A stretch of DNA of 64,000 nucleotides. Source: Candidatus Omnitrophota bacterium (GTDB taxonomy: Bacteria; Omnitrophota; Omnitrophia; Omnitrophales; Aquincolibacteriaceae). Every line of letters begins with the position of its first letter. Position 1 is the stretch's first letter. Shown piece by piece: positions 1 to 37,065 of the stretch. Location of the stretch: contig JBMONI010000002.1 in assembly GCA_049324575.1 (NCBI GenBank), positions 92,804 through 156,803 on the forward strand, given 5' to 3'. Position numbers and translations under genes: made by a program. The notes beneath the pieces are model-generated. The model was given only the letters and a program-made list of their open reading frames with translations. It did not search any database and was not told the origin of the DNA.

Positions 1-3000
1 AAAGACCCAATAATACTGATAAGGGTCGGCCCCCTGGCGAGGCCGTTTGATAACATAAGCGTCTTGGAGACCGGATTCAGCGACGTTCCCTTCCAAAAAC
101 GCTTTATAGGCTTCCGATCCATCGGGATCTGCTTCAGCGCTAACGGCATCAGAGGGAGTCCCTTCTTCAGGAGCGGGCGGCGTAGTCACATCCGAAGCGC
201 GAGGCGGCAGATCGATAAGACGAAAAGCCAAGACCACAGTCGAAGCCTCGGACGAAAGGATCTTAATGGCAGTCTCTTCGGCCAGTTGGTAACGAGCGCC
301 CCATCCCGCATCGCTTGAGATCGCGGCTCCAAAAGCTCTCAAGGTCTTTAGTTTTTTAGCGCCGTCGCCGGGCACATCCGGTCGGATCGGCCATTCAAGG
401 GTGACCCTCTTCTTTTCCGCGCTGAATTTCAATTCAAGCGGATCCTCCGAGCGGTACCACTCCTGGGACGTGATCAGACCGACAAGATCACTGATATCAA
501 GATCGGCGGCCTCTCCTTCTTCCCTCACCTCGGCCCGTAATGAAATAACACGGGCCTCGGCGCGAAGGCCATGTTTGGGACGCAACTCCCGGTCCGCATT
601 GTGGAAAAAACTCCTCACGGCCACCGGCATCCCGACGCTCTTGCGCGAATCATACCCCACTTGATTATTCAGCCATCTCCGGAAGGTTTCAAATTGCGGC
701 GGTCTTGTGATCCTCGCCCTTTCAAGAAAACGACGCTCTTTTTTCAACAACTTTTCGAAAAAGCGAATGGCGCCTTGATTTTCCGGGGTCGGATCAGCTT
801 CCTTTGCCATCGCAAGCGCTCTTTCGATCGCGGCTAGCGCGGTTATTTCGGCAACGGCCGTCACCACGGGTTGAGCGACATCACTTCGCAATTCCGCCCG
901 CCCTTGGAGGCGAGGCGTCTCGCCTTGGGCGGACGCACGGCGACGGCGCGAAACTTCGCCGTCCGAAGTCACGGGCCCCATCACCCCTTCCGCATTGGTC
1001 ACGCTGGGTGTATAGCGGTTGAGATAATTCCAAAGGAGCGAGCGCTCATTGAGAAGCGAAACGTCCCAGCCCCGGACCCCGGCAAAGATCCTTTCGAAAT
1101 GCGCGAGCACATTGAAAACAAATTCCTGGCGATGCGGTTTTCTCGCTTCCTGGCTCAAAGCGATATCCACCAGCGGCGCCAAAAGACTTTTCAGGATCGG
1201 GAGTGAGTAAGGAAGGTAAACATTGATGGCGCGATCGGCATTGGCCCGAGTTTCAAAAACGCGGCGGGTTTCGGCGATACGTTGTTCCTTCCACCGGCTG
1301 ATGACCTCCTGGACAGTCTTTTCAGGTCCGACCACCAATGTCGAAAGGATATCGAGCATCAGACGAATATCGTAGCCTGTGAGCAAACCGTTCCCCTGGA
1401 GCAAAAGGTCCGGACTGTTATAGGTGAAAAGACCGTAATGCGGGCCATAAGGTTTCACCGCTTCGACCATGGCATCTGAAAGCGCCTCGTTCCCGCTTAC
1501 GATCAGGACTTCATCCGTTTCCAAACGCATTTTTTGTTGCTTGCCGGTTTCATCGCGAAATGAAATTTCATTTCCTTGCAATATCCCCCGGACTTCCTCG
1601 GGCCCCGCAAATTCGATATCCAGAACCTTGACTTTGAAACCACGCTCGCGAAGCCCCGCTTCAACTCTTTCGGCGATCACATGCTTTCCGGACGACCGCA
1701 TCCCGCCCATCAGCACGACATTCCCTCCTTGACGGGAGCGAATTCGATCGGCGATCTCTGTCACCGCTCCTTCGATCGAGCGATGAAGCGTTTCATCGAC
1801 ATCGGCGATCAGCTCTTGCCGCTCTTTTGCGTTCAATCCGTTCAACTGATGCACCGTCGCCGGCGTTTGATCGAGCGCTTCTTTTTCGATGGTATACGGT
1901 AATCTCCGGGAAGGAAAAAGAAAGACCCTCAGAAGGATCGTCAGAACGCGAACAAGCCGCCCCCACCGATCGGACGGTTTGGACAAAGGTTTTCTGTATT
2001 TTTTGTAAAAAACCGATTGAGGATCCGCCAGTTCCGCATTCACGATCCGGGCCAGGGCCGTGATAAAAGCGGCCTTGCGAAGGTTCGTCTTTTTCGCCCG
2101 GGCGAGTTTGACCACGCTGTAAAAGGCCTTCAGAATGCGGTCTTCCATCATGCCGTTGACCATCACTTCGGGCCACTGTTCATTGACGTTATTCTGCCGC
2201 CATTCGAGGAAAGAGACGATCACGCCGCCCGCATTCGCGATGACATCGGGAACGATCAGGGCTCCTTTTCTTTCGAGGATCTTTTCAGTTTTCCGATTCT
2301 TGATCGGCCCATTCGCCCCTTCGACGATCATTTTCGCCCTGATCAGGGGGGCGATCTTTTCATCCACGGTATTCTCGCCCGCCGCGAGCGTCAGGATGTC
2401 GACATCGCTTGACCAGAATTCCGCCACCGGAACGATCCTGGCTTTTCCAGGATTCGCTTCGGCATAAGCGCGGAGCGCGTGTCCTTTGAATTTCCCGAGG
2501 TTCTCTTCCACGGAATAAAAACGGTTCACAAAATCATTGAGCTCGGGAATATCCAGCCCTTCGGGACCCACACTTGCGATCGCCATCGCTTCCTTGGGAT
2601 CATAGGCTTCCTTGATCGCCATGATCTTTCCCCCGGCCTCGGCGTAGAACCCGGTCGCATATCCCCCGACGTTCCCGCCTCCTTCCACCGCGAACCGAAG
2701 CCCCTTGATCTCGGTCCCGATGCCGAGCATTTTTCCAAAGATTTTCAGAGCTTCGCGCGTAATGAAATAAACGCCGCGTCCGGTAGCCTCGCGCCGGCCT
2801 TTCGAGCCTCCCTTGTCTACCGGTTTCGACGTAACAAAGCCAAGCGGAGATCCCTGAACCATTTTGAGATTTTGATGTGCCGGGTCTTTCAGATAAAAAT
2901 CGAGATAAGGCGTTCCGGTATCGGGGAATGAATTTTCAAGGAATCTGCGGAATCTCGGCGTCATAAAAAGCTCCGCATGTTTGATCTTCAGATACTCATC

Positions 3001-6000
3001 CGCCATCCATCCCATGATCTTTTCGGAGGTCCCGATATCGGGAGCGGGAATATCATCCAGAGGCCCGATCGTATCGGGATTTTTCTCGATAAGCGCCCGG
3101 ACATAGCCCCGGGTCAGCCGCGCAAGTTCGCCTTCGGAAAGAGTGCTCGGATCAATCTCGATGCCGCCTTTTCCACCGCCGTAAGGAAGTCCCGCGATCG
3201 CGTTTTTGACGCTCATCCACATCGAAAGCGCCTGGACATCCTCCACATCCACATGCGGACTGTACCGCACGCCCCCTTTCCCGGCGCCCAGGGCCGCGTT
3301 GTGATAAACGCGGTAGCCTTTGAAGGTCCGTGTCGAGCCATTATCCATCCGCGCCGGAATAGAAACTTCCGTCACGCGGTAAAAAGACAAAAGCCAATCG
3401 AGAAGTTTCCGGTCAAGCCCCATCGCTTTGGCCGCCTGACGGACCTGCTCCTTCGCGTTCCGAAGCGCGATCGCACCCGCCGACGCCTGTCGCACTTCGG
3501 CCCTGCCGGATTTTTTTTCGGTCGAAGCTGGCTCGACCTTGTCAGGGGCGGCCGCGCGAGAAGAGCTCTGAAGCTGGGCCCAAATCTCCGCTTCCCTTTC
3601 ATCCAAAGCCGCAAGGCGCCGGGCAAGATGCACGGCCATGCGGGGGTCGGTTCCGAATTGTTGATTGAGGCGTTCCCTTTCTTCCTGGATCGTTTGAAGC
3701 TCAAGAAGCGCACGATCTTCCGATACGCGCGTCGCCATCGCCGGAGAAAGAACGCCCGCTTTTTCTGCCTGTCGCAGTTCAGCGCGGGGAGGATTTTGAA
3801 ACTGTTTCAGTTTTTCGCTGACCCGCTTATACAGATCAGAATCTTCGTACACCCCTTTGATGAGCAAAAAGATGTTGTTTGCTTGCTTCGCTTTTTCCAG
3901 AAGCGCAGAATCGATGCCTTCCAAGACCTCCACTAAAGCGCTTATGCCGACTTCTCTCATGGCAACGACCACAGGATCTTCCCAAAGTTTTCGTTCCGCC
4001 TTTTCCACAAAATCCTCATCATGGATATTCGCCAGAACAAGCGTGTTGGCTAAATACTGATGGACTGTGAGATTCCCGTTATATTCCAACGCCATGCTAA
4101 TACCGCTTTGAGGGGTCACTCCCATTTTCTGCCAGACGGGATAGACCCTGGCAAAATTGCCTTTCTGAGAGGCCCATTCCTCAGTGCCTTCCTCCATTTT
4201 CAACTCGCCGTAGTAAACCGGGATCTCCAGTCCTGACCCGAAGTCGATCTTTTTGACAGGAAATATCCTCGACTTCGCGAAATCATCCATAAGCTTCCCG
4301 CCCAGGCTTGCGGCTAGAGACGGGATAGGATCGTCCGGTGTCAATGTCCCGCGCCAACTCAGTTCCATATCCTGATAACGCGACACACCGTGTCGTTTGA
4401 ATAACTCCACGATATATCCGTAATTCGCAGGTTTAACCTTTTTATGAAAACTATCCACGCTCACGCGAATAAAGAGATTCTTCAGCGGCTTCTTGCCGAG
4501 TTCGCGCCTGGCCTTCGCAGCTCCGGCGATATCATCAAGCAACCTTTCCGTTCTTGTTTCGTCCGAGAACATGATGCCGCTCGTGATAATCTCGATCTCT
4601 TCGACGTCGGCTTCTCTGATAAATTTCAGAAGGGACGGCATCCGCGTCAGCGGCTCCCCGCCCGTCAGCCCGATCTTTCTGAATCGTTTTTCTTTCAGAT
4701 ACTTAAGGATCCTGTCCACGTCCTTTTCATTGAAAAAAACTTCTTTTCTGCGATCTTGAACGGCATGCATGAAACAGAATGCACATTGGACTGGGCAGAA
4801 ATTTGTCAGCGAAATATAGAGCTCTTCATATTTCAAAAATTGTTCCCGAGAATATGCCCGCGCTTCGGCCCGAGGTTTTGCGCTAATGCCTAATCGCCCA
4901 ACGGCTAACGGCTGAATGATCGCTCGGAGTTCCGCCCGGCCGTTCGGCGAGATCACCGCGTCAGCGCGACTCGCGTATTCCATCGTGCCCGCTTTCGCGG
5001 CCGCAAGTTCCCCCGCCTGCGAGAAGATCGAACGTATGTAGGCCTTGGTGCCCGCCTCGTCCGCTTTCGTGATTCGCGGCGTCAATCTCGCGTACGTGTA
5101 GCCCTTCGATTCAAAATGTTCCCGGAACGGTTCCGCGTGGAATCCGCCCGTCACCACCGCTACCCGGTCCGTCCCCAGTTCCTTGATCCGCTCTTCGACA
5201 CGCCTCATCATGATCGTGTCGCGCTGCTTCGCGAATGAATAAAAAGACATTGCCTTATTGAACAGATCATCGATCTCGGCCAGATTCTCGAACGCCACGT
5301 CTTTGACGCGATTGTCTTTGTTGAGCGCCGAGAATCGGGAGGCGATATTCGAAGGAAGCAGAGGCGTATGGGAGTAGGACGGTATGGCAGTATGGAGTAT
5401 GGAGTATGGAGTATGGGGTTTTGCTGCATCCTGTGTACTGCTTACTGTCATACTGTTATATTCGCTGTCCGTCAATTTCAACTCGAACAGTTTCTCCAGC
5501 AACTGATAATCCGAAAGCAGCGCCACCAGCGCTTTTTCCTCGTCCGTCTTCGACATCCGTTCCAAGAGCTTCCCTTTCAACTGCTCCACTTCCGCCATCA
5601 GCGCCCCCGCCTCAAGCTCCGTCGACAAAAGCCACTGCCCAAGATAACTCTTCACCTGCGGGTATTTCCCATGCGCGAAGTCCCTCGGCAAATATCTCAC
5701 CATGTCCTCCACCAAGGACTCCGATTCCGCGCCCGAAAGCGGGATCTCGTGGATCGGGGTCCCGAGCACTTTCTCGATATAACCGTAAAGGTTCCGTGCG
5801 GAGATCCATTTCCCGTGGATCCGCGATTGCGCTCTGGTCAGATACGGCTTCACCGCGGCGAGGAATGCCGCGCGCTCGCTCTCGAATTTCGCGGCGTCGA
5901 ATTTCTCCGCGAGGTCCGTCGTCACATACAGCCTCACCAGCATCGGCCACTCGGCCTGATAGCCCGGGTCCGCGAGGTCCCAGCCGTAGCGCTTCGCTTT

Positions 6001-6684
6001 CGCGCGCAGGAACTTCGTCCATTCGCCGAAGCTCATCCGCTCCAGGGCGTACGATTCCTGCGCTCGCATGAATCCTTTCAGCGTGTCGTTCAGATAATGA
6101 CCCGAAAGACGCGCGATCGATTCGTCCATCGCCTTCAGGAACTTTCCCGTCGATTCTTTCGCTTTCAACACTTCGATGAACGCTTGCTCGTTCGCTTTGT
6201 AGGCCGCGAGGTCTTCGATGCCGTAAGCCGAAGCCGCCTTTTCATCGAGAAGATAAAGCTCCGCGCCGTGGACAAGCGCTTTTTTCGTGAGGTAGTCGTT
6301 GGCTTTGCGGTTGCGCGTTGGGTCGTTCGGAAAGAAATTCAGGATCGCGGGATCGAGTTTCGCCACCGCGCCTTCCACCAGCACCGTCTTGATCCCGAGC
6401 GTCTTTGTCAGATGATTCAGCAGCGCCTGGATATTTTTCTGCGCTTCGAAATTCCCGTGCGCCGTCTGAATGTGCACGATCGCCGGCCCTTGCGCCGTTT
6501 TCAGATGATCGAGGCGCCCGTGCTTTGTGGGAATGCTGATCGCACCCCAAGAAGCGTGGTCCGAAGCTTGGCGAACACCGATTTCCGTCACTGGAAATCC
6601 TGGCGCACCATAAGAAACATTGGTTGTGATGAAAATAACGGTGGTGAGGGCAGCGACAGCAGCTTTAAAGGGTCGAGCGCGCAT
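1..6684 (-). CDS. Giant multidomain protein, partial (C-terminus beyond window start; at least 2,228 aa in window). Order N to C: signal peptide, TraB/GumN/Tiki-like domain, radical-SAM core, Glu/Leu/Phe/Val dehydrogenase (GDH), P-loop NTPase-like domain, further uncharacterised sequence.
   Basis: Manual reverse-complement translation of every 60-nt line from 6720 down to 1: ATG at 6684..6682 (MRARPFKAAVAALTTVIFITTNVSYGAP...), in-frame TAG 15 codons upstream, then no stop through position 1. Absent from ORF track only because no stop lies inside the window. Motifs read directly: CPVQCAFCF + IGLTGGEPL (radical SAM); LPYGGGKGGIEIDP, DIPAPDIGTS, VEGGGNVGG, EGANGP, IANAGGV (GDH); GGMRSSGKH (Walker-A-like); H..H / VLVEGA / VAVVTGGFHAEP...GYTYARL (TraB/GumN-like). 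Confidence 0.85.
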   Translation of the reverse strand, partial: MRARPFKAAVAALTTVIFITTNVSYGAPGFPVTEIGVRQASDHASWGAISIPTKHGRLDHLKTAQGPAIVHIQTAHGNFEAQKNIQALLNHLTKTLGIKTVLVEGAVAKLDPAILNFFPNDPTRNRKANDYLTKKALVHGAELYLLDEKAASAYGIEDLAAYKANEQAFIEVLKAKESTGKFLKAMDESIARLSGHYLNDTLKGFMRAQESYALERMSFGEWTKFLRAKAKRYGWDLADPGYQAEWPMLVRLYVTTDLAEKFDAAKFESERAAFLAAVKPYLTRAQSRIHGKWISARNLYGYIEKVLGTPIHEIPLSGAESESLVEDMVRYLPRDFAHGKYPQVKSYLGQWLLSTELEAGALMAEVEQLKGKLLERMSKTDEEKALVALLSDYQLLEKLFELKLTDSEYNSMTVSSTQDAAKPHTPYSILHTAIPSYSHTPLLPSNIASRFSALNKDNRVKDVAFENLAEIDDLFNKAMSFYSFAKQRDTIMMRRVEERIKELGTDRVAVVTGGFHAEPFREHFESKGYTYARLTPRITKADEAGTKAYIRSIFSQAGELAAAKAGTMEYASRADAVISPNGRAELRAIIQPLAVGRLGISAKPRAEARAYSREQFLKYEELYISLTNFCPVQCAFCFMHAVQDRRKEVFFNEKDVDRILKYLKEKRFRKIGLTGGEPLTRMPSLLKFIREADVEEIEIITSGIMFSDETRTERLLDDIAGAAKARRELGKKPLKNLFIRVSVDSFHKKVKPANYGYIVELFKRHGVSRYQDMELSWRGTLTPDDPIPSLAASLGGKLMDDFAKSRIFPVKKIDFGSGLEIPVYYGELKMEEGTEEWASQKGNFARVYPVWQKMGVTPQSGISMALEYNGNLTVHQYLANTLVLANIHDEDFVEKAERKLWEDPVVVAMREVGISALVEVLEGIDSALLEKAKQANNIFLLIKGVYEDSDLYKRVSEKLKQFQNPPRAELRQAEKAGVLSPAMATRVSEDRALLELQTIQEERERLNQQFGTDPRMAVHLARRLAALDEREAEIWAQLQSSSRAAAPDKVEPASTEKKSGRAEVRQASAGAIALRNAKEQVRQAAKAMGLDRKLLDWLLSFYRVTEVSIPARMDNGSTRTFKGYRVYHNAALGAGKGGVRYSPHVDVEDVQALSMWMSVKNAIAGLPYGGGKGGIEIDPSTLSEGELARLTRGYVRALIEKNPDTIGPLDDIPAPDIGTSEKIMGWMADEYLKIKHAELFMTPRFRRFLENSFPDTGTPYLDFYLKDPAHQNLKMVQGSPLGFVTSKPVDKGGSKGRREATGRGVYFITREALKIFGKMLGIGTEIKGLRFAVEGGGNVGGYATGFYAEAGGKIMAIKEAYDPKEAMAIASVGPEGLDIPELNDFVNRFYSVEENLGKFKGHALRAYAEANPGKARIVPVAEFWSSDVDILTLAAGENTVDEKIAPLIRAKMIVEGANGPIKNRKTEKILERKGALIVPDVIANAGGVIVSFLEWRQNNVNEQWPEVMVNGMMEDRILKAFYSVVKLARAKKTNLRKAAFITALARIVNAELADPQSVFYKKYRKPLSKPSDRWGRLVRVLTILLRVFLFPSRRLPYTIEKEALDQTPATVHQLNGLNAKERQELIADVDETLHRSIEGAVTEIADRIRSRQGGNVVLMGGMRSSGKHVIAERVEAGLRERGFKVKVLDIEFAGPEEVRGILQGNEISFRDETGKQQKMRLETDEVLIVSGNEALSDAMVEAVKPYGPHYGLFTYNSPDLLLQGNGLLTGYDIRLMLDILSTLVVGPEKTVQEVISRWKEQRIAETRRVFETRANADRAINVYLPYSLPILKSLLAPLVDIALSQEARKPHRQEFVFNVLAHFERIFAGVRGWDVSLLNERSLLWNYLNRYTPSVTNAEGVMGPVTSDGEVSRRRRASAQGETPRLQGRAELRSDVAQPVVTAVAEITALAAIERALAMAKEADPTPENQGAIRFFEKLLKKERRFLERARITRPPQFETFRRWLNNQVGYDSRKSVGMPVAVRSFFHNADRELRPKHGLRAEARVISLRAEVREEGEAADLDISDLVGLITSQEWYRSEDPLELKFSAEKKRVTLEWPIRPDVPGDGAKKLKTLRAFGAAISSDAGWGARYQLAEETAIKILSSEASTVVLAFRLIDLPPRASDVTTPPAPEEGTPSDAVSAEADPDGSEAYKAFLEGNVAESGLQDAYVIKRPRQGADPYQYYWVF
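1330..1745 (-). other. P-loop NTPase-like domain within the giant protein (Walker-A-like GGMRSSGKH)
   Basis: Translated ...RQGGNVVLMGGMRSSGKHVIAERVEAGLRERGFKVKVLDIEF...; family not recognised. Confidence 0.35.
1985..3420 (-). other. Complete Glu/Leu/Phe/Val dehydrogenase (glutamate dehydrogenase-like) domain within the giant protein
   Basis: Translated SIPARMDNGSTRTFKGYRVYHNAALGAGKGGVRYSPHV...LPYGGGKGGIEIDPSTLSEGELARLTRGY...DIPAPDIGTSEKIMGWMADEY...GGSKGRREATGRGVYF...FAVEGGGNVGG...DILTLAAGENTVDEKIAPLIRAKMIVEGANGP...PDVIANAGGVIVSFLEWRQN; catalytic Lys and Rossmann GxGxxG both present. Confidence 0.85.
3990..4830 (-). other. Radical SAM core domain within the giant protein (CxxxCxxC at 4800..4774)
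   Basis: Translated ...YISLTNFCPVQCAFCFMHAVQDRRKEVFFNEKDVDRILKYLKEKRFRKIGLTGGEPLTRMPSLL...; no further Cys cluster, so no SPASM/twitch extension. Confidence 0.75.
5050..6590 (-). other. TraB/GumN/Tiki-like (PF01963-like) domain region of the giant protein
   Basis: N-terminal AIVHIQTAHG...TVLVEGAV and C-terminal RVAVVTGGFHAEPFREHFESKGYTYARL resemble the paired GxxH / E motifs of the TraB/GumN family; assignment from motif memory. Confidence 0.45.
5365..5417. repeat. Imperfect tandem heptanucleotide repeat (GTATGGA)n, three perfect plus about four degenerate units, inside the giant CDS
   Basis: Plus strand 5390-5410 = GTATGGA x3 perfect, flanked by GTATGGG, GTATGGCA, GTAGGACG, GTATGGG; on the coding strand CCATACT repeats encode ...KPHTPYSILHTAIPSYSHTP... 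Confidence 0.85.
6598..6684 (-). other. Predicted N-terminal signal peptide or signal anchor of the giant protein (MRARPFKAAVAALTTVIFITTNVSYGA)
   Basis: Basic n-region (R2,R4,K7) followed by a roughly 20-residue hydrophobic stretch; translated by hand. Confidence 0.55.
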
Positions 6685-7145
6685 ACCTTGTGTAAGAATT
6701 CCCGCGTTACCGATTAAGGTAAAGTTATTCTATTGTCTTACGCTTAACTTTTAAAAAATCTCAGGAAAGACAAAGATGCAAGAAATTTAACCGTCATGAA
6801 TGGCTTTGTCAAGTATAAGCCATACAATTTGTTACGAAAAATCCACCCCTGCCGATTTAGCACTCTTTTTCAGTATAAATCCGGATCGTTTTTTCCCATT
6901 TTCAAGTCACCGGCTAGCCCTTGGTAAAATAGGCCCTAATTCATGCTTGTTCCGATCAAAAACTAGCATTCTTGCCTCTTCCGTACATTTTCTTCGCGTA
7001 AAAAACTCGAAGATCCTCTCACAGACCCAATATCCTAACAGCGAATAGCGGCTTTCCCCGGCTCCGTGACATTTTCCGGAAGTTTAGGTAGAATACCGCT
7101 TCCGTTTTTTTACCGTATCTTTTCACCCAGAAAAGGAGTTTTGCC

Positions 7146-7892
7146 ATGTATAAATTGGTGCTTCTGCGTCACGGCGAAAGCGTTTGGAACAAAGAGAATC
7201 TCTTCACCGGATGGACCGATGTCGACCTTTCCGAAAAAGGCTGCCAGGAAGCGCGCGAGGCCGGACTCACCCTCAAAAAAGAGGGTTTTACTTTTGATTA
7301 TGCCTTTACCTCGGTCCTGAAACGGGCAATCCGGACGCTTTGGCTCACCACCGATGCCATGGACCTCCTGTGGCTTCCGGTCGAAAAATGCTGGCGGTTG
7401 AACGAGCGTCACTACGGAGCTTTGCAGGGACTTAATAAAAGCGACATGGCCGCAAAATACGGCGAAGAGCAAGTCAAGATCTGGCGCCGCAGCTACGATG
7501 TCCGCCCCACCGCTCTCGAAGAGAACGATCCGCGCAATGTTCGCAAAGACCCGCGCTATGCCGGACTGAAACCCGGCGAAGTCCCTCTCACCGAATGCCT
7601 GAAGGACACGGTCGCGCGCGTCATCCCCTGCTGGAAAGAAAGGATCGCCCCCGCGATCCGGTCCGGGAAAAAGATCATCGTCGCCGCGCATGGCAACAGC
7701 CTTCGCGCCATGGTCAAATTTCTCGATAACATTTCCGACGAAGCGATCGTCAGCATGAACATTCCGACCGGTCTTCCGCTTGTCTATGAACTTTCTTCAG
7801 ACCTGAAGCCGATCAAAAATTATTATCTCGGGGACCCCGAAAAAGTAAAAGCCGCCATGGCCGCTGTCGCGAATCAAGGCAAAGCGAAATAA
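7146..7892 (+). CDS. gpmA: 2,3-bisphosphoglycerate-dependent phosphoglycerate mutase
   Basis: [32 protein letters not shown]... classic GpmA N-terminus (RHGES catalytic His); RBS AAAAGGAG 8 nt upstream. Confidence 0.95.
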
Positions 7893-8075: not shown

Positions 8076-8160
8076 ATGAATTTATACGATTTCAAAATTG
8101 CCAGATGTTTTCAGTTCAGTTTCCGTCCTTCTTTCCGCAAACAGTCTTAAGGAGATTCTC

Positions 8161-11100
8161 ATGACCGAACTATCGACTCATCTCGCCTCGATCGCCGTCA
8201 AAAAAAGGAACGGCCAGGAAGTCCCATTCTTCGCCGTCCGGATCCAGCGCGCCATCGCCAGCGCTTTCAAAGCGCATTGCGGACTGCCGCAGGAATCCGA
8301 CCTTCCCGAAGATCTTGCCCGCTCCGTGGAAAAGATCACCACCCAAGTCGTGGCCGGGTGCGAGACCGAAGCCGTCGACCGCAAGGTCCTTTTCATCGAA
8401 GACATCCAGGACACCGTCATCCGGACACTCGCTGCATCCGGCTTTCCGGAAATCGCCCAGCGCTATAAAGATTACCGTCATCTTCAGCAGACCGAACGCC
8501 TCGAGCACCAGCGCATCACGGTCAGGAAACGGGACGGGCGGACTGTATCGTTCAAACCCGAAAAGATCACACGCGCGATCGCAAAAGCCTTCGCTGCGGA
8601 ACTCGGAGAGGATCTTTTTCCCGAGACCGCGATCGAAGCCGCCTTGAAAGTTTCCGATGCCGTCATTCAAAAGGTCCGCGCCTTGAGCGCCGATGCTTTC
8701 ACGGTCGACATCGAGAAGATCCAGGATCTCGCGGAACTCGCTCTGATGGAGCAGGGATTCCACGATATCGCGCAGCGCTACATCCGTTATCGCGAAGACC
8801 GGCGCATGGCGCGCATCAGCGGGCCCTCCTCCCTCGCGGCCGAGACCTCGCAGCCTTCGCTTCGCCTCAAAAAAGCGAACGGAACTGTGCTCCCGCTCGA
8901 CCTTGCGCTGCTTCGCCGGATCATTCTCGACGCCTGTTTCGGCTTTGAGGACGAAGTCTCGCCTGAGCTCATTTTGAAGGCAGCCCTCCGTAATTGTGTC
9001 GATACTATGCCGGAGGAAAAGCTGATCGACGCAGTGGCCCTCGCCGTGCGACCGCTCATCGAAAAAGACACGGCCTATTCGTATATCGCCGGGCGCGTTC
9101 TGCTCAAAAAACTTTATGAAGAGGTTCACGGCGGTCCGGCCTCCAAAGAGCTCATCCGCGGCGTCTATCCCGAGCTTTTCCGGAAGGCTGTGGTGCGCGG
9201 GATCGAAGCCGAGCGACTTTCGCCCGCCATGCAGGATTACAACCTGCAGAAGCTCGGCAAAGCCCTCCGGATGGAACGCGACGAAAGCTTTCAGTTCATG
9301 GGCCTGCAGATCCTCTATGACCGGTATTTCCTCCATCACGACGGCGTCCGTTTTGAAACCCCGCAGATCTTTTGGATGCGGATCGCGATGGGCCTGGCCC
9401 TGAACGAAGGAAAGGCGAAGGATGACCGGGCGATCGAATTTTACGAAGTCCTTTCGACCTTTCGGTTCGTCAGCTCAACGCCGACGCTTTTCAACGCCGG
9501 GACCCTGCATCCCCAGCTTTCCTCCTGTTTCCTCACCACCGTCGCCGACGACCTCGACCATATCTTCAAAAGCATCAAGGACAACGCCATGCTCTCGAAG
9601 TGGAGCGGCGGCCTCGGGAACGACTGGACTTCGGTCCGGGCCATGGGCGCAAGAATCAAGGGCACGAACGGAAAAAGCCAGGGGATCATCCCGTTCCTCA
9701 AGGTCGCCAACGATACCGCGGTCGCCGTCAATCAGGGCGGAAAACGCCAGGGTGCGGTTTGCGCTTACCTGGAATGTTGGCATCTCGACTTCGAGGAATT
9801 CCTCGAACTGCGAAAAAACACCGGCGATGACCGGCGGCGCACACACGATATGCACACGGCCAGCTGGATCCCGGACCTTTTCATGAAACGGGTCCTGGCC
9901 AACGGCGACTGGACCCTTTTCAGCCCGAACGAAGTCCCGGACCTCCATGATCTTACGGGAACCGCCTTCGAGGAGCGGTACCGGGGATACGAATCCGCGG
10001 CACTCGCGGGAAAACTCCGCCAATCCAAGCGCATGCCGGCCGTTGATCTCTGGCGGAAAATTCTCACCATGCTTTTCGAAACCGGCCATCCCTGGGTCAC
10101 TTTCAAGGACCCCTCGAATATCCGCTCGCCGCAGGACCATCAAGGCGTCGTGCACAGCTCAAACCTCTGCACGGAGATCCTTCTCAATACGAACCGCGAT
10201 GAGACCGCGGTCTGCAACCTCGGTTCGCTCAACCTGGCCGCCCACATGACTTCCGGCGGCTTCGATCGAACGCTTTTGGCCGACACGGTCGGTATCGCCA
10301 TGCGCATGCTCGACAATGTCATCGACCTCAACTATTACCCGACCCCTGAGGCGAGAAACTCGAACCTCAAGCACCGGCCGGTGGGCCTCGGCCTGATGGG
10401 TTTCCAGGATTGTCTGTACCGGATGGGTGTCAGTTACGCTTCCGACGAGGCCGTCCGCTTCGCCGATGAAAGCATGGAATTCATCTCTTATCATGCTCTC
10501 CTGGCCTCGACCGAGCTTGCGCGCGAGCGAGGCCCTTACGCGTCCTTCAAAGGTTCGAAATGGGACCGCGGGATCCTGCCGTTCGATACGCTGGCGCTCC
10601 TCGAAAAAGAACGCGGAGGCTATCTCGAGATCGACCGGTCACAAACCCTGGATTGGACCCCGGTCCGTGAGGCGATCCGCCAGCACGGCATGCGCAATTG
10701 CAATACCATGGCGATCGCTCCGACCGCCACGATCGCCCAGATCGTCGGGATTACGCAGTCGATCGAGCCTCTCTATAAACATCTTTTCGCCAAAAGCAAC
10801 CTCTCGGGCGAATTCACAGCGATCAATCCTTATCTCGTGGCCGAGCTCAAGGCCCTCGGGATCTGGGATACGGGAATGATCGATGACCTGAAATATTTCG
10901 ACGGGTGCTTGGCCGAGATCGCAAGGATCCCGCAAAGCGTCAAGAACCGTTTTCCGACAGCGTTCGAGATCGATTACGAGTGGATCATCGAATGCGCGAG
11001 CAGGCGTCAGAAATGGATCGATATGGGGCAGTCCGTGAATCTGTATCTCGCGGAAGCCAGCGGCAAGAAACTGCATAGCATGTACACCCTGGCTTGGCAG

Positions 11101-11271
11101 AAAGGGTTGAAAACGACCTACTACCTGCGCTCCCTGGGCGCGACACGGATCGAGAAATCCACGCTGGACGCGAAAAAATACAAGAACACGATCGGTAAAA
11201 AAAAATTCACCCCGGAACAGACGGCCCAGTGCCGCCTCGATAACCCTGACAGTTGCGAAGCCTGTCAGTAA
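8161..11271 (+). CDS. nrdA: Class I ribonucleoside-diphosphate reductase alpha subunit with N-terminal ATP-cone(s)
   Basis: ATG at 8161 preceded by AAGGAG (the ORF-track start at 8098 is an upstream extension). ATP-cone VKKRNGQEVPF..., active-site region NLCTEILLNTNRDETAVCNLGSLNLAAH. Confidence 0.93.
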   Translation: MTELSTHLASIAVKKRNGQEVPFFAVRIQRAIASAFKAHCGLPQESDLPEDLARSVEKITTQVVAGCETEAVDRKVLFIEDIQDTVIRTLAASGFPEIAQRYKDYRHLQQTERLEHQRITVRKRDGRTVSFKPEKITRAIAKAFAAELGEDLFPETAIEAALKVSDAVIQKVRALSADAFTVDIEKIQDLAELALMEQGFHDIAQRYIRYREDRRMARISGPSSLAAETSQPSLRLKKANGTVLPLDLALLRRIILDACFGFEDEVSPELILKAALRNCVDTMPEEKLIDAVALAVRPLIEKDTAYSYIAGRVLLKKLYEEVHGGPASKELIRGVYPELFRKAVVRGIEAERLSPAMQDYNLQKLGKALRMERDESFQFMGLQILYDRYFLHHDGVRFETPQIFWMRIAMGLALNEGKAKDDRAIEFYEVLSTFRFVSSTPTLFNAGTLHPQLSSCFLTTVADDLDHIFKSIKDNAMLSKWSGGLGNDWTSVRAMGARIKGTNGKSQGIIPFLKVANDTAVAVNQGGKRQGAVCAYLECWHLDFEEFLELRKNTGDDRRRTHDMHTASWIPDLFMKRVLANGDWTLFSPNEVPDLHDLTGTAFEERYRGYESAALAGKLRQSKRMPAVDLWRKILTMLFETGHPWVTFKDPSNIRSPQDHQGVVHSSNLCTEILLNTNRDETAVCNLGSLNLAAHMTSGGFDRTLLADTVGIAMRMLDNVIDLNYYPTPEARNSNLKHRPVGLGLMGFQDCLYRMGVSYASDEAVRFADESMEFISYHALLASTELARERGPYASFKGSKWDRGILPFDTLALLEKERGGYLEIDRSQTLDWTPVREAIRQHGMRNCNTMAIAPTATIAQIVGITQSIEPLYKHLFAKSNLSGEFTAINPYLVAELKALGIWDTGMIDDLKYFDGCLAEIARIPQSVKNRFPTAFEIDYEWIIECASRRQKWIDMGQSVNLYLAEASGKKLHSMYTLAWQKGLKTTYYLRSLGATRIEKSTLDAKKYKNTIGKKKFTPEQTAQCRLDNPDSCEACQ

Positions 11272-11451: not shown

Positions 11452-12507
11452 ATGAATAAAAAAGACTACATCATTCCGATGACCAAGGAGCGGATCCGCA
11501 TCGAGGACAAGCGGATCATCAATAACAAGGCCGTCGACGTAAACCAGCTGATCCCGATCAAATATGAATGGGCATGGCAGTATTATCTCGACGGATGCGC
11601 GAACCACTGGATGCCGCAGGAGATCTCCATGCAACGTGACATCGAGCAGTGGAAAGACCCGAAAGCCTTCTCTGACGATGAGCGTCTCATGTTCAAGCGG
11701 AACCTCGGATTCTTCACGACCTCCGACACGCTTGTCGCGAACAATATCATCCTGGCGATCTACCGCTACGTCACAGCCCCCGAGATCCGCCAGTATTTCC
11801 TCCGCCAAGCCTTCGAAGAGGCTGTTCACACCCACGCTTACCAGTACATCCCGCAATCACTTGCCTTTGACGAAGGCGAGCTCTACAACATGTACCGCGA
11901 GATCCCGTCGATGCATGCCAAAGCAGAGTTCGAAGCCGAACTCACCGCTGATATCCTGAAACCGGACTTCGAAACCGACTCTTTTGAAGGCCGCCAGCGG
12001 CTTTTGAGCAATTTAATCGGTTATTACGGAGTCACCGAAGGGATCTTTTTCTACGCGGCCTTTGTCATGCTGCTTTCCTTCGGCCGGCACAACAAATTGC
12101 CCGGCATGTGCGAGCAGGTCCAGTACATTCTCCGCGACGAAAGCATGCACCTCAATTTCGGACTGCATTTGATCAACGAGATCATCCGGGAGGAGCCGGC
12201 CATCTGGACCCCGGCTATGCGGGAAGAGACCGTACACAAATTCAAGAAAGGCGTGGAACTCGAGGTCGAATATGCCAAAGACTGTCTGCCGAACGGGCTC
12301 ATGGGCCTGACCCTGGACCTGATCCGCGAATACATCCAGCATATCGCGGACCGCCGGCTCGAAAGGCTCGGGCTTCCGGTCCAGTTCCCGAAGGCCGGGA
12401 ACCCTTTCCCCTGGATGAGCGAGATCATCGACCTGAGAAAAGAAAAGAATTTCTTCGAAACGCGCGTGACGGAATATCAGACCGGCGGAACGCTTGACTG
12501 GAGCTGA
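11452..12507 (+). CDS. nrdB: Class I ribonucleotide reductase beta subunit (ferritin-like, di-iron/tyrosyl radical)
   Basis: MNKKDYIIPMTKERIRIEDKRIINNKAVDVNQLIPIKYEWAWQYYLDGCANHWMPQEI...; RBS AGGAGG at 11441-11446; the GTG at 11449 is a 1-codon extension. Confidence 0.93.
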   Translation: MNKKDYIIPMTKERIRIEDKRIINNKAVDVNQLIPIKYEWAWQYYLDGCANHWMPQEISMQRDIEQWKDPKAFSDDERLMFKRNLGFFTTSDTLVANNIILAIYRYVTAPEIRQYFLRQAFEEAVHTHAYQYIPQSLAFDEGELYNMYREIPSMHAKAEFEAELTADILKPDFETDSFEGRQRLLSNLIGYYGVTEGIFFYAAFVMLLSFGRHNKLPGMCEQVQYILRDESMHLNFGLHLINEIIREEPAIWTPAMREETVHKFKKGVELEVEYAKDCLPNGLMGLTLDLIREYIQHIADRRLERLGLPVQFPKAGNPFPWMSEIIDLRKEKNFFETRVTEYQTGGTLDWS

Positions 12508-12534
12508 GCCGGCGCTATTTTCAAAAGCCCGGGC

Positions 12535-13269
12535 TCAAGACTGAATGCTGGCGATGATCCGGTCGCGGGTCTCTTCGCGCAGTTTCTCGAAGTCACCCGC
12601 CTGCAGCAATGCCGTTTCGACCGGCTCCAGGATGCGGATCCGGCAATAGACCTTGGTCGTAAAGACCCAGCTGTGCTTGGGCAAGGCATCGATCGTCCCT
12701 CCGATCGAGACCGGCAGGATCGGCAGTTTATGTTTGATCGCCAGTTTGAAAGCCCCGTTCTGAAATTCCTGGACCTCCCCCGTGCGGCTGCGTGTCCCTT
12801 CCGGAAAAAAAAGGACGGACATCCCCTTGGCCAGCCAATCGGAAGCTTCGCGATAGACTTGTTTGATGCTCGAAGCCTCACCACGACGAAGGCGGATATG
12901 CCGGCAAAGGCTGAGGCACCAACCGAGGGGCGGGACCTTGAAAAGACTGTCTTTAACGACCCATTTGAACTGCAGATGGGTCTGATAGATCACGGGGATA
13001 TCCCCGAGGCTCTGGTGATTCGCCACGATCACATAGGTCCGTCTGGGATCGACACGCTCCCGGCCCTCGATCTTGAGCGACCAGAAAGGGTTCGGCCGGA
13101 TCATGACGTCCGACCACCAGTAGCATTGGGCATGGGCGAGGCGGCGATCGGGATCCAGCGGAAAGGTCAGCAGGACGATCACCGCCTGCACGAGGGCTAG
13201 CACGGCGGTCGTCACAAAAAAATTCAGCCAGATGAAGGGCGAGATCAGATAACAAATAAAACGGGGCAT
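12535..13269 (-). CDS. plsC: 1-acyl-sn-glycerol-3-phosphate acyltransferase
   Basis: HX4D acyltransferase motif (VANHQSLGDIP), FPEGTRS motif; start trimmed to ATG 13269 (MPRFICYL...) with GGAGGAG RBS. The track's 13527 start is an upstream extension. Confidence 0.85.
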   Translation of the reverse strand: MPRFICYLISPFIWLNFFVTTAVLALVQAVIVLLTFPLDPDRRLAHAQCYWWSDVMIRPNPFWSLKIEGRERVDPRRTYVIVANHQSLGDIPVIYQTHLQFKWVVKDSLFKVPPLGWCLSLCRHIRLRRGEASSIKQVYREASDWLAKGMSVLFFPEGTRSRTGEVQEFQNGAFKLAIKHKLPILPVSIGGTIDALPKHSWVFTTKVYCRIRILEPVETALLQAGDFEKLREETRDRIIASIQS

Positions 13270-13303
13270 GTTCTTTTTCTCCTCCGAAGCGGCGCAGTGA
13301 ATC

Positions 13304-14137
13304 TCATTTGGTCTGAAGAAAACGCGCGGGGGGTTTGATCCTCTTAGACCGCATCGCCTGATAGACCAACCGGTCGAGATCTTCTTTGGAAAGACCGCGG
13401 AACAATTGCCCGCCGAAAGCCACGCTGATCTCCCCGCGCTCTTCGGAAGCGACAAGGCTGAGCGCGTCTGCCTTTTCCGTGATGCCGATCGCCGAACGGT
13501 GCCGGGTCCCGACCCCCAGAGGGACATTCGGACCAGAGGCCAGAGGCAGGATCACTTTCAGCGCGCGGATCCTCCCCTTGCGAATGAGGATCGCTCCGTC
13601 ATGGACCGGCGATTCATGCGAAAAAAGAGAAAGCAGGATCTCCGATTTTACCTCGCCGTCGAAAGAAAAACCCTTGGAAAGGAACGGTGAAAGGTCGGAG
13701 CGTCTTTCAAGAACGATCAAAGCGCCCATCTTTTTTGCGGCCATGGCCTCGAGGGCGCGCGTGATCTCCGCCAAATAGACCGGCAAGCCAAATTTGCGGC
13801 GGAGCCGCCACCACGTCCTGAAACGCCCCCAGAGTCCCAACAGCATTTGAAAGCTGAGCAAGAGGAAGCCGAACGTCACAAGGGCCATCTGGACCCCGTC
13901 GAGAAAACGGACTGTGAGGATCCCGGTCAGGATCCATCGGACCGCGGTCCAGAGGCAAAAAGCGCCGGCCCCATAGCGTAAAAGACGGTTCCCGCAAGAA
14001 TCGGCGGGATGGTAAAGAATGAAACCAAAGCCCGTGAGAAGGGCCAGCCAGAAAAGGATCGGAGTTAGCGCATCAAAATTCATAGGAAGGTCATCTCGGT
14101 CATGAAATGGGATTATAAACGAAAAGAGCCGGTTCAT
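13304..14137 (-). CDS. cdaA: Diadenylate cyclase (c-di-AMP synthase), membrane-anchored CdaA type
   Basis: Three N-terminal TM helices then DisA_N motifs HDGAILI and GTRHRSAIGITEKADALSLVASEERGEISVA (DGA / RHR). Start codon sits in the loop of hairpin 14124..14148. Confidence 0.8.
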   Translation of the reverse strand: MNRLFSFIIPFHDRDDLPMNFDALTPILFWLALLTGFGFILYHPADSCGNRLLRYGAGAFCLWTAVRWILTGILTVRFLDGVQMALVTFGFLLLSFQMLLGLWGRFRTWWRLRRKFGLPVYLAEITRALEAMAAKKMGALIVLERRSDLSPFLSKGFSFDGEVKSEILLSLFSHESPVHDGAILIRKGRIRALKVILPLASGPNVPLGVGTRHRSAIGITEKADALSLVASEERGEISVAFGGQLFRGLSKEDLDRLVYQAMRSKRIKPPARFLQTK

Positions 14138-36423: not shown

Positions 36424-37065
36424 TTAACTGACACGGATAAAAGCGGAAGCGTCGGTCTTGCAGATCGCACAGGTCCCCGAAGAGGCCGCTTCCTTGATAT
36501 TCCCGCAGACGGGGCACACGAAAAAATTCTTGGTCCCCTTTTTCCAGGCTTCCTCATGATCAAGGATCTTGCGGCAAAGGTCCGCATGAACGTTCTCGGC
36601 CTGCATCGCGTCCTTGAAAGAATCGACAGCCTCTTCGGCCCCCGCCGCCTCGGCGGTCTCGAGGAAATCCGGATACATGGCCGTGGCTCCGTCCATGCGC
36701 TCGTTGAGCATCGTTTCGAGGTTGTCGCGGGTACTCTCGACCTTCGCCGGATCGATCACCGCCGCCGGCTCGCCGCCGAGCTGGCGGATCACTTCCGCGT
36801 GCCGTTCAAAATGGACCTGGGCCGCACGCGCGATTGCGCGGAAAAAGCCCGCGACCGCTCCAAAGCCTTCCTGGTCAGCCTTCCCGGCGAACGCCATCGC
36901 GTTCACATGGGCATTGCTCTCCGCGCGGAAAGCGGTCATGAGAAGCTCAAGCGGGCCGTTCTCCTGGTTCGTTTCCGCGGCCACGCTCATGCCCGACAAG
37001 GTTATCCCCATCAAACCTGCCAGCAAGAATGCCCCCAGTCGCTTGCGCGCTCGGACCCTGTTCAC
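36424..37065 (-). CDS. Rubrerythrin with apparent N-terminal signal peptide and C-terminal rubredoxin-like CPVCG...CAICK
   Basis: Ferritin-like E...E..H motifs (AFRAESNAHVNAMAFAGKADQEGF...HFERHAE); GTG start 37065 has a good RBS (GGGAAGGA-8nt) and overlaps the stop of the upstream giant gene (GTGA). Confidence 0.75.
   Translation of the reverse strand: MNRVRARKRLGAFLLAGLMGITLSGMSVAAETNQENGPLELLMTAFRAESNAHVNAMAFAGKADQEGFGAVAGFFRAIARAAQVHFERHAEVIRQLGGEPAAVIDPAKVESTRDNLETMLNERMDGATAMYPDFLETAEAAGAEEAVDSFKDAMQAENVHADLCRKILDHEEAWKKGTKNFFVCPVCGNIKEAASSGTCAICKTDASAFIRVS

Follow-up and report, generated by a model that had tools for sequence, protein, structure and literature searches.

A complete, probably active single-cluster radical SAM module with a predicted YydG/EpeE-like fold in a giant multi-enzyme protein of Candidatus Omnitrophota

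Among characterised radical S-adenosylmethionine (SAM) enzymes, the one closest to the element described here is the peptide epimerase YydG/EpeE of Bacillus subtilis (PDB 8AI1-8AI6; NCBIfam family TIGR04078), which is encoded in an operon with a precursor peptide, a peptidase and an ABC transporter. EpeE carries an auxiliary [4Fe-4S] cluster in its T-SPASM (extended twitch) domain (PMC13012085), and its Cys223 serves as the hydrogen-atom donor (PMC13012085, PMC5682303). A second point of reference is given by the multi-enzyme long proteins of Omnitrophota. In the searched passages of the report on these proteins (bioRxiv 10.64898/2026.06.07.730766), the radical SAM domain PF04055 was found in 90 of them and was grouped with domains of sugar metabolism, and the presence of cytoplasmic-type enzymes behind signal peptides was noted as a paradox. 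The searched passages of West-Roberts et al. 2023 (bioRxiv 10.1101/2023.11.21.568195) state that the cleavage points of giant proteins are unknown. In this study, we analysed a stretch of 64,000 nucleotides (nt) from a Candidatus Omnitrophota bacterium (assembly GCA_049324575.1, contig JBMONI010000002.1, positions 92,804 to 156,803 of the forward strand), called the window below. It encodes a giant protein in which a radical SAM module lies between a hydrolase-like leader domain and a glutamate dehydrogenase (GDH); the coordinates of all features are collected in Table 1.

The open reading frame (ORF) of the giant protein runs on the minus strand from an ATG at 6684 to position 1 of the window without a stop codon, which gives at least 2,228 amino acids (aa), and an in-frame stop is located at 6730-6732, 45 nt before the ATG. 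The visible ORF is a lower bound, with the C-terminal end beyond the window edge and any downstream modules outside the part covered. Its origin is an Omnitrophota genome, and the proteins flanking the giant gene are identical to MFZ5801587.1 and MFZ5801610.1 of Candidatus Omnitrophota bacterium. A preliminary description of the window had read the motifs CPVQCAFCF and IGLTGGEPL in one protein, and both were indeed found in one uninterrupted ORF on the minus strand (aa 630-638, positions 4797-4771, and aa 671-679, positions 4674-4648, respectively). That description also stated that there was no second cysteine cluster; in fact, cysteine occurs exactly three times in the 2,228 visible residues, namely in the CX3CX2C triad. 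The profile assignment stands as well, as PF04055 matches aa 624-723 with 48.0-49.1 bits, above the gathering score of 29.5, and Fer4_12 matches the module with 41.7-44.8 bits against 22. The features typical of the superfamily, i.e. the CX3CX2C motif, the profile score, the GGE motif and a partial (beta/alpha)6 TIM barrel, are all present. We take the GGE motif (G675, G676, E677) to bind the amino/carboxylate end of SAM, in line with established knowledge of radical SAM enzymes. With PF04055 and ELFV matches in one ORF, it was correct that a radical SAM domain resides inside a protein of more than 2,000 aa together with a complete GDH. The claim that such embedding is rare did not survive, since 7 of the 150 best matches to the module exceed 2,000 aa and, according to the passages cited above, PF04055 is a recurrent domain of Omnitrophota long proteins.

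The Pfam match to the radical SAM module is confined to its first ~100 residues. The designation of this module as a minimal core was nevertheless mistaken, because homologues align over ~345 aa and the AlphaFold2 (AF2) model shows a full core with a C-terminal subdomain. This model, built on the family alignment (pLDDT 88.6, pTM 0.89), contains six beta/alpha units with beta-hairpins and a bundle of helices behind them, a predicted arrangement of core and C-terminal subdomain as in EpeE. The range originally assigned, 3990-4830, does contain the radical SAM core, but it cuts off the C-terminal helical subdomain, because the conserved unit is 3799-4830. Judged by its sequence, the module forms a complete unit with a single cluster and is probably an active enzyme.

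This module can be assigned, on sequence grounds, to an uncharacterised family. The family surfaced only in an exhaustive HMMER search of 1.84 billion representatives, which gave 352 matches, with 154 relatives retrieved; word-prefiltered searches returned generic radical SAM matches (E ~1e-4) or none. Twelve relatives at E<1e-30 were aligned over query residues ~33-375, that is, over the whole ~345-aa unit. The window protein falls into a single-module clade that includes P0008, P0009 and two other giants among these 12, P0011 (5,119 aa) and P0016 (2,671 aa). Tandem double modules are present in P0005, P0010 and P0014; P0006 consists of His_Phos and two radical SAM modules, and P0007 (2,383 aa) of a carbamoyltransferase and two such modules, behind a region that by eye resembles GT2. 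In an alignment of 15 modules with 22-42% identity to that of the window (A1), T627, C630, C634, C637, G675, G676, E677, T701, P786, G870, D903 and R910 are invariant, while S742, D744 and H747 (SVDxFH) and N936/N937 are conserved in at least 90%. The cysteine triad, whose loss in orthologues the preliminary description had regarded as fatal to its assignment, is kept in every complete homologous module, in two of them with CX5CX2C spacing, and no conserved cysteine outside the triad was found in the family alignment. Relatives of the window protein were found neither in the genome_contigs scans nor in a metagenome_contigs scan with the C-terminal 298 aa. By eye, P0011, P0016 and P0008 appear to have a common C-terminal domain (GTSWIKGYE.../LLLGTSSIPYF...). 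The two giants have repeats of their own between modules, a long linker in P0011, SSEGRGMRDEGR, and a stretch of ~60 aa in P0016, HDPDAPHQAVNNVTAKLGTDE.

Both sequence profile and predicted fold indicate that YydG/EpeE is the nearest characterised relative of the module family, and three independent comparisons lie behind this kinship. When Foldseek was used with the AF2 model, EpeE chains occupied ranks 1-9 (E 6e-12 to 6e-11, TM-score 0.65-0.74), followed by BlsE (E 3e-6, TM-score 0.43). The family profile matched YydG chains with an E-value of 9e-11, the next match being at 1e-6, and its alignment sets the family sequence lSvDefH against ISYDEYH of EpeE. Finally, TIGR04078 (rSAM_yydG) gave the best NCBIfam E-value across family members (3.8e-13, still far below cutoff) and was the top match for several stand-alone, more distant relatives. 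On the other hand, while the predicted fold of core plus C-terminal domain is common to both, the window module is only 13-15% identical to EpeE, scores 23.7 bits against a TIGR04078 cutoff of 300, and sits inside a giant multi-enzyme protein. Having the triad cysteines alone, it lacks both the ligands of the auxiliary cluster and a hydrogen donor of the Cys223 type; its gene neighbours are a dPGM-like phosphatase and NrdAB instead of the components of the EpeE operon. Membership in YydG proper was rejected on all four counts, namely the hidden Markov model (HMM) cutoff, the auxiliary cluster, the thiol donor and the precursor-peptide operon. Because neither the auxiliary cluster nor the thiol donor is present, the chemistry cannot be that of EpeE, and the substrate radical would have to be resolved differently.

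Other radical SAM enzymes are more distant. For the Twitch/SPASM enzymes (anSME, CteB, SuiB, SkfB, BtrN, MoaA) and for viperin/BlsE, the structural match was clearly weaker than for EpeE, and HMM scores were far under curated cutoffs, with ~100 aa covered. No match to PF13186 (SPASM/twitch) was found in the giant protein, nor any cysteines for an auxiliary cluster, which places it outside that group. MoaA, viperin and Tes were rejected at 33-44 bits against cutoffs of 180-450, with only module residues 10-106 matching, and pVip at 29-32 bits in PADLOC, again in the N-terminal part only. A literature search for 'YydG-like' returned nothing relevant, and neither the YydG-like family nor a GDH module appears in the searched passages of both long-protein papers ('glutamate dehydrogenase' has 0 occurrences there).

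If the module works as other members of its superfamily, C630, C634 and C637 would hold the [4Fe-4S] cluster and SAM would be bound by the GGE motif and the (beta/alpha)6 core. The reduced cluster would then cleave SAM to the 5'-deoxyadenosyl radical, which would take a hydrogen atom from the substrate. Resolution of the substrate radical is predicted to proceed unlike in EpeE, the candidates for this step being the conserved S742/D744/H747 and Tyr825.

As to the substrate, the genomic partners of the family may be informative. In the sister clade with tandem modules, a conserved cassette (L009, L010) combines a carbamoyltransferase, a 1,008-aa phosphoribosyltransferase (PRTase)-like protein and a double radical SAM protein. 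The 1,008-aa protein has two phosphoribosyl pyrophosphate-binding (PRTase-like) motifs by eye and only a faint PRTase_2 match. In L013-L015, the carbamoyltransferase and the PRTase-like protein form one fused protein (1,814 aa) and the radical SAM pair carries a fused His_Phos, whereas in L011 the double module is paired with a PNP_UDP nucleosidase. The carbamoyltransferase/PRTase-like/double radical SAM cassette seems to represent a biosynthetic system that has not been described before. Genes for a precursor peptide, a peptidase or an ABC exporter were found neither in the window nor in L009-L015, and a small ORF downstream in L009 was rejected as a precursor peptide, being a transposase fragment by eye. 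Since the recurrent partners are a carbamoyltransferase, PRTase-like proteins, a histidine phosphatase and a nucleosidase rather than precursor peptides, the substrate could belong to the small molecules. We hold only weakly, giving it slightly less than an even chance, the view that the module acts in trans on a diffusible metabolite of a phosphorylated, sugar-like or nucleoside-like kind. GDH is not among these partners. No GDH was detected in the 154 retrieved relatives, which were searched with the window GDH, linker, middle and C-terminal segments, the giants being also Pfam-scanned; the functional link between the two domains that had been proposed earlier is therefore unsupported. From the sequences compared, GDH is an independent cassette and not a conserved partner of the radical SAM module. 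The best overall explanation, which we consider to have a probability of about 0.5, is that the module is an active single-cluster cassette acting in trans on a small-molecule substrate, the latter part weakly held, with GDH independent of it.

Several points weigh against this explanation. The small-molecule partners were documented only in the sister clade with tandem modules, whereas the window protein belongs to the single-module clade, and a small molecule is for this reason favoured only weakly over a peptide. EpeE and most structures that come after it in similarity (ChlB, SkfB, CteB, anSME, SuiB) act on peptides or proteins, which favours a peptide substrate. Neither a reductase nor a flavodoxin partner was found. 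The structure of the module is a prediction, and its activity is read from sequence and model only; moreover, the ORF runs off the window, so further modules lie outside the view. Finally, a Sec-type signal peptide forms the N-terminus of the giant protein, and no transmembrane segment that would stop its transfer is obvious. Read literally, the signal peptide would place outside the cytoplasm an enzyme that is sensitive to oxygen and depends on SAM and a reductant. It is a puzzle why such a signal should precede enzymes that require SAM, NAD(P)H, ATP and Fe-S assembly.

One plausible alternative, which we find possible although somewhat less probable than a small-molecule substrate, is that the module modifies a peptide or protein by abstraction of a C-alpha or side-chain hydrogen, the target being either a segment of the giant protein itself (in cis, as the preliminary description had proposed) or a separate peptide. 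A peptide substrate is conceivable in view of the EpeE-like predicted fold. However, the auxiliary cluster and the Cys223-type hydrogen donor that define the chemistry of EpeE (PMC13012085; PMC5682303) are missing, the TIGR04078 score is low, and neither precursor-peptide genes nor the accompanying peptidase and exporter genes were found in the window or in L009-L015; the small ORF following the gene in L009 is the transposase fragment by eye mentioned above. A repeated RAExR motif of the giant protein, considered as the recognition site of the module, was rejected as a substrate signature, as the closest relatives P0008 and P0011 are devoid of it.

This motif bears on a separate problem, orthogonal to the question of the substrate, namely whether the module should be called embedded at all. 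The sequence RAE[LVA]R occurs 7 times in the giant protein, at aa 583, 605, 967, 1061, 1929, 2041 and 2050, while 0.06 occurrences are expected from composition (P about 4e-13). All copies are placed between folded units, and two of them closely flank the radical SAM module. A count over all six frames of the 64-kb window gave 11 matches, 7 of them in the giant ORF and 0 in the other 47 predicted genes. Because the codons differ between copies, with variation in both Arg and Ala codons, selection acts at the peptide level. A nucleotide-level signal (an internal start or a Shine-Dalgarno site) was rejected on account of this variation and of position 4 being often Ala. Similar motifs are present in other giants: in P0105 (6,629 aa, from a Logan assembly), linkers rich in Pro/Ala/Gly precede 9 copies of RAE[AVL]R, and P0046/P0162 have 8-9 copies of RSE[MALI]R; these proteins also carry distant modules of the same radical SAM superfamily. 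P0162 (HRK61150.1, 4,944 aa, Candidatus Omnitrophota) combines such a distant module with His_Phos and a methyltransferase. A literature search for 'RAELR' gave only accidental strings.

Two observations concern the surroundings of the related motif RSExR. In P0162 (aa 1088-1125 and 1775-1817), two RSE[AL]R motifs are directly followed, one by a Tat-like signal, NRRQFLGIFTAGIMG (NRRQFLG), and the other by two hydrophobic helices; judged from this sequence, the internal modules look as if they started like the N-termini of independent exported proteins. In L012, a separate FG-GAP-like gene (11578-14007, plus strand), whose product starts with VVPAVQQIISAAL-RSELR-EGEEK, adjoins the gene for P0158 (L012:9739-11550), a stand-alone homologue of the leader domain.

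The leader domain itself has no Pfam match. Its conserved motifs are IVHIQTAH (aa 69-76), LVEG, QRD and VVTGGFH (aa 510-517), and all seven homologues (7/7) have similar N-termini with AxA-like sites. The domain is also N-terminal in three other giant proteins and in two stand-alone secreted proteins, and both the leader and a RAE/RSE-type motif recur in two other giants, one of them from Omnitrophota. The superfamily of this fold includes the proteases Tiki and RRSP, and also esterases and a haem-binding protein. An orthologue of the leader, 86% identical, was noted in P0157 (ACOY3K_01780, from an Omnitrophota metagenome-assembled genome); it has an out-of-frame tail after ~aa 440, and the orthologous giant gene there was probably split by a frameshift or an assembly error.

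RAE[LVA]R may be a processing or docking site, and the architecture of motif and leader, as far as sequence can tell, suggests a processed polyprotein. If the giant protein was cut at these motifs, a radical SAM enzyme of ~357 aa (aa 610-966) would be set free, and the P-loop region would stay joined to GDH (aa 1066-1928), because no RAExR lies between them. We regard this as unlikely, though deserving serious attention. In its favour are the excess and placement of the motif, its restriction to one gene of the window, its recurrence in P0105 and P0046/P0162, the protein-level selection indicated by codon variation, and the signal or transmembrane helices that follow the motif in P0162 in the manner of an independent N-terminus; RSELR near the N-terminus of a separate gene behind a stand-alone leader homologue (L012) and the proteases of the leader superfamily point in the same direction. 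Against it, the same superfamily also contains the esterases and the haem-binding protein, cleavage would be read from sequence alone, P0082 has the leader domain and no motif, and P0011 and P0016 use other repeated linkers, so that such repeats could equally be structural spacers or traces of module shuffling.

A more far-reaching version, to which we give a still smaller chance, is an exported polyprotein in which R-[AS]-E-[LVMA]-R is the processing site, cut possibly by the protein's own leader, with release of the enzymes, one of them a free YydG-like radical SAM enzyme. Cysteine loss would then be an adaptation to transit, and the enzymes might become active only after reaching a different compartment or a different cell, be it host or prey. 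P0162, with its 4,944 aa, resembles the window protein in having no cysteines but the three ligands of the radical SAM cluster, and such extreme cysteine depletion fits a protein that spends time outside the cytoplasm. The giant protein agrees in several respects with the published multi-enzyme long proteins of the same phylum, as described in the passages searched: many unrelated enzyme domains per polypeptide, a signal peptide and recurrent PF04055. Members of many enzyme families tile it, including EreA/TraB-like, radical SAM, ELFV GDH, P-loop and unassigned modules. The proteins treated in those papers have at least 10,000 aa, the threshold of bioRxiv 10.64898/2026.06.07.730766; the 2,228 aa visible here are a lower bound. 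MARTX toxins and viral polyproteins provide analogy only, since the giant protein has no cysteine-protease domain, RTX repeats or sequence homology to them, and its processing is hypothetical.

GDH is the best-defined neighbour of the radical SAM module. ELFV_dehydrog_N (aa 1103-1231) and ELFV_dehydrog (aa 1292-1552) match with 166 and 163 bits, respectively, each at ~1e-48, and ~43 aa are inserted between these halves. The domain matches the canonical hexameric GDH 4xgi_A (E 4e-83), with GGGKGG, GGGNVG, EGANGP and ANAGGV intact; NCBIfam GdhA_Arch gives 307 bits, under its equivalog cutoff of 750. With both Pfam halves above threshold and the catalytic and dinucleotide-binding motifs preserved, the enzyme looks functional from its sequence. 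It does not adjoin the radical SAM module directly, as had been supposed, because ~110 aa composed of RAELR, the 89-aa linker and RAEVR separate them. In the part that follows GDH (985-2016, minus strand, aa 1557-1900), a basic, hydrophobic stretch, RWGRLVRVLTILLRVFLFPSRR, comes first, and behind it lies a region that contains both a weak 4-oxalocrotonate-tautomerase-like match and the Walker-A P-loop. For the P-loop region, a PDB search gave no significant match, and homology to the corresponding region of P0012/P0007 was not significant (E 0.14).

It is very doubtful that the radical SAM module is a dedicated partner of GDH, acting on the same small molecule, for instance by a radical rearrangement followed by reductive amination or deamination of a 2-oxo/amino acid. 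The two domains share one polypeptide at a short distance and GDH is intact; amino-group chemistry beside radical SAM steps occurs in nucleoside-antibiotic pathways. However, an ELFV domain is present in 0/12 close relatives, as in none of the wider set, two punctuation motifs and a linker intervene, and the GDH is a canonical enzyme of the hexamer type. Least credible of all is a degenerate, non-catalytic relic kept as a structural module: the Pfam match confined to the N-terminal part and the absence of an auxiliary cluster would agree with it, but the triad and GGE are invariant among modules of only 22-42% identity, the triad cysteines are the sole survivors both here and in P0162, and a full-length fold is predicted with confidence.

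Table 1. Features of the giant gene and of related loci (window positions unless a locus is named)
Feature	Position	Strand	Basis or remark
Giant ORF, multi-enzyme long protein	1..6684	-	no in-frame stop; Pfam domains all in one frame
Promoter-like site TTGACA-17-TAAATT, ~100 nt upstream of ATG	6784..6812	-	consensus match only
Sec-type signal-peptide-like N-terminus, MRARPFKAAVAALTTVIFITTNVSYG/AP	6604..6684	-	read by eye
Leader domain, aa 28-582 (555 aa)	4939..6603	-	EreA/ChaN/TraB/Tiki-like hydrolase fold with large helical insert
RAELR, aa 583-587	4924..4938	-	
RAEAR, aa 605-609	4858..4872	-	9 aa before first radical SAM strand
Radical SAM module, aa 619-962, ~345 aa	3799..4830	-	(beta/alpha)6 core and beta-rich, helical C-terminal subdomain
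CPVQCAFC, CX3CX2C triad C630/C634/C637	4774..4797	-	predicted [4Fe-4S] ligands; invariant in alignment A1
LTGGEPL, GGE motif G675/G676/E677	4648..4668	-	invariant in alignment A1
SVDSFH, aa 742-747, family motif	4444..4461	-	S, D, H at least 90% conserved; counterpart in EpeE ISYDEYH
RAELR, aa 967-971	3772..3786	-	4 aa after last radical SAM helix
Charged helical, coiled-coil-like linker, 89 aa, aa 972-1060	3505..3771	-	composition from sequence; no significant Pfam match
RAEVR, aa 1061-1065	3490..3504	-	just before GDH
ELFV-type glutamate dehydrogenase, complete, aa 1073-1556	2017..3468	-	both Pfam halves, intact motifs
P-loop region, Walker-A GGMRSSGK aa 1660-1667, weakly kinase-like	985..1767	-	APS_kinase E 0.004-0.015, below threshold
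RAELR, aa 1929-1933	886..900	-	
RAEAR, aa 2041-2045, and RAEVR, aa 2050-2054	550-564, 523-537	-	
Further module(s), aa 2055-2228 and beyond	1..522	-	no Pfam match; no metagenome_contigs relative
Carbamoyltransferase/PRTase-like/double radical SAM cassette	L009:4404-12355; L010; L013:3879-12599; L014; L015		unfused or partly fused

The giant gene lies in an ordinary chromosomal neighbourhood that includes a dPGM-type histidine phosphatase, NrdA/NrdB, acyltransferases, transporters and a GH94 glucan synthase-like protein. The promoter consensus scan gave 4 sites against 1.0 expected, and an Rfam search of 6500-7300 found no riboswitch. The dPGM-like histidine-phosphatase gene (7146-7892, plus strand) adjoins the giant gene and is transcribed divergently. 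In P0006, radical SAM modules are fused to His_Phos_1, which in P0162 occurs in one giant with such a module; the adjacency in the window may be functional, or the gene may be a plain housekeeping GpmA. The large subunit of class I ribonucleotide reductase (8098-11271, plus strand) is extended at its N-terminus and carries more than one ATP-cone, with 2 stretches matched. Another gene of very great length (37062-44330, minus strand, 2,422 aa), with GH94 supersandwich and catalytic domains, resembles cyclic beta-1,2-glucan synthase and contains no RAExR motifs.

For radical SAM enzymology, these results delineate an uncharacterised family with the predicted fold of YydG/EpeE, one cluster and no thiol donor, whose modules occur as cassettes of giant proteins and also, paired in tandem, in a conserved carbamoyltransferase/PRTase operon. 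For the biology of Omnitrophota, the architecture around the radical SAM domain may matter more than the domain itself. Should the motif prove not to be a cleavage site, what is left is another modular long protein whose radical SAM domain is divergent. A non-random border motif in at least three giants, together with a conserved hydrolase-like leader, amounts to a concrete, testable processing hypothesis. The most valuable lead is not the pairing of radical SAM with GDH, but a YydG-like, cluster-poor radical SAM family in a punctuated, leader-bearing giant protein with candidate cleavage sites.

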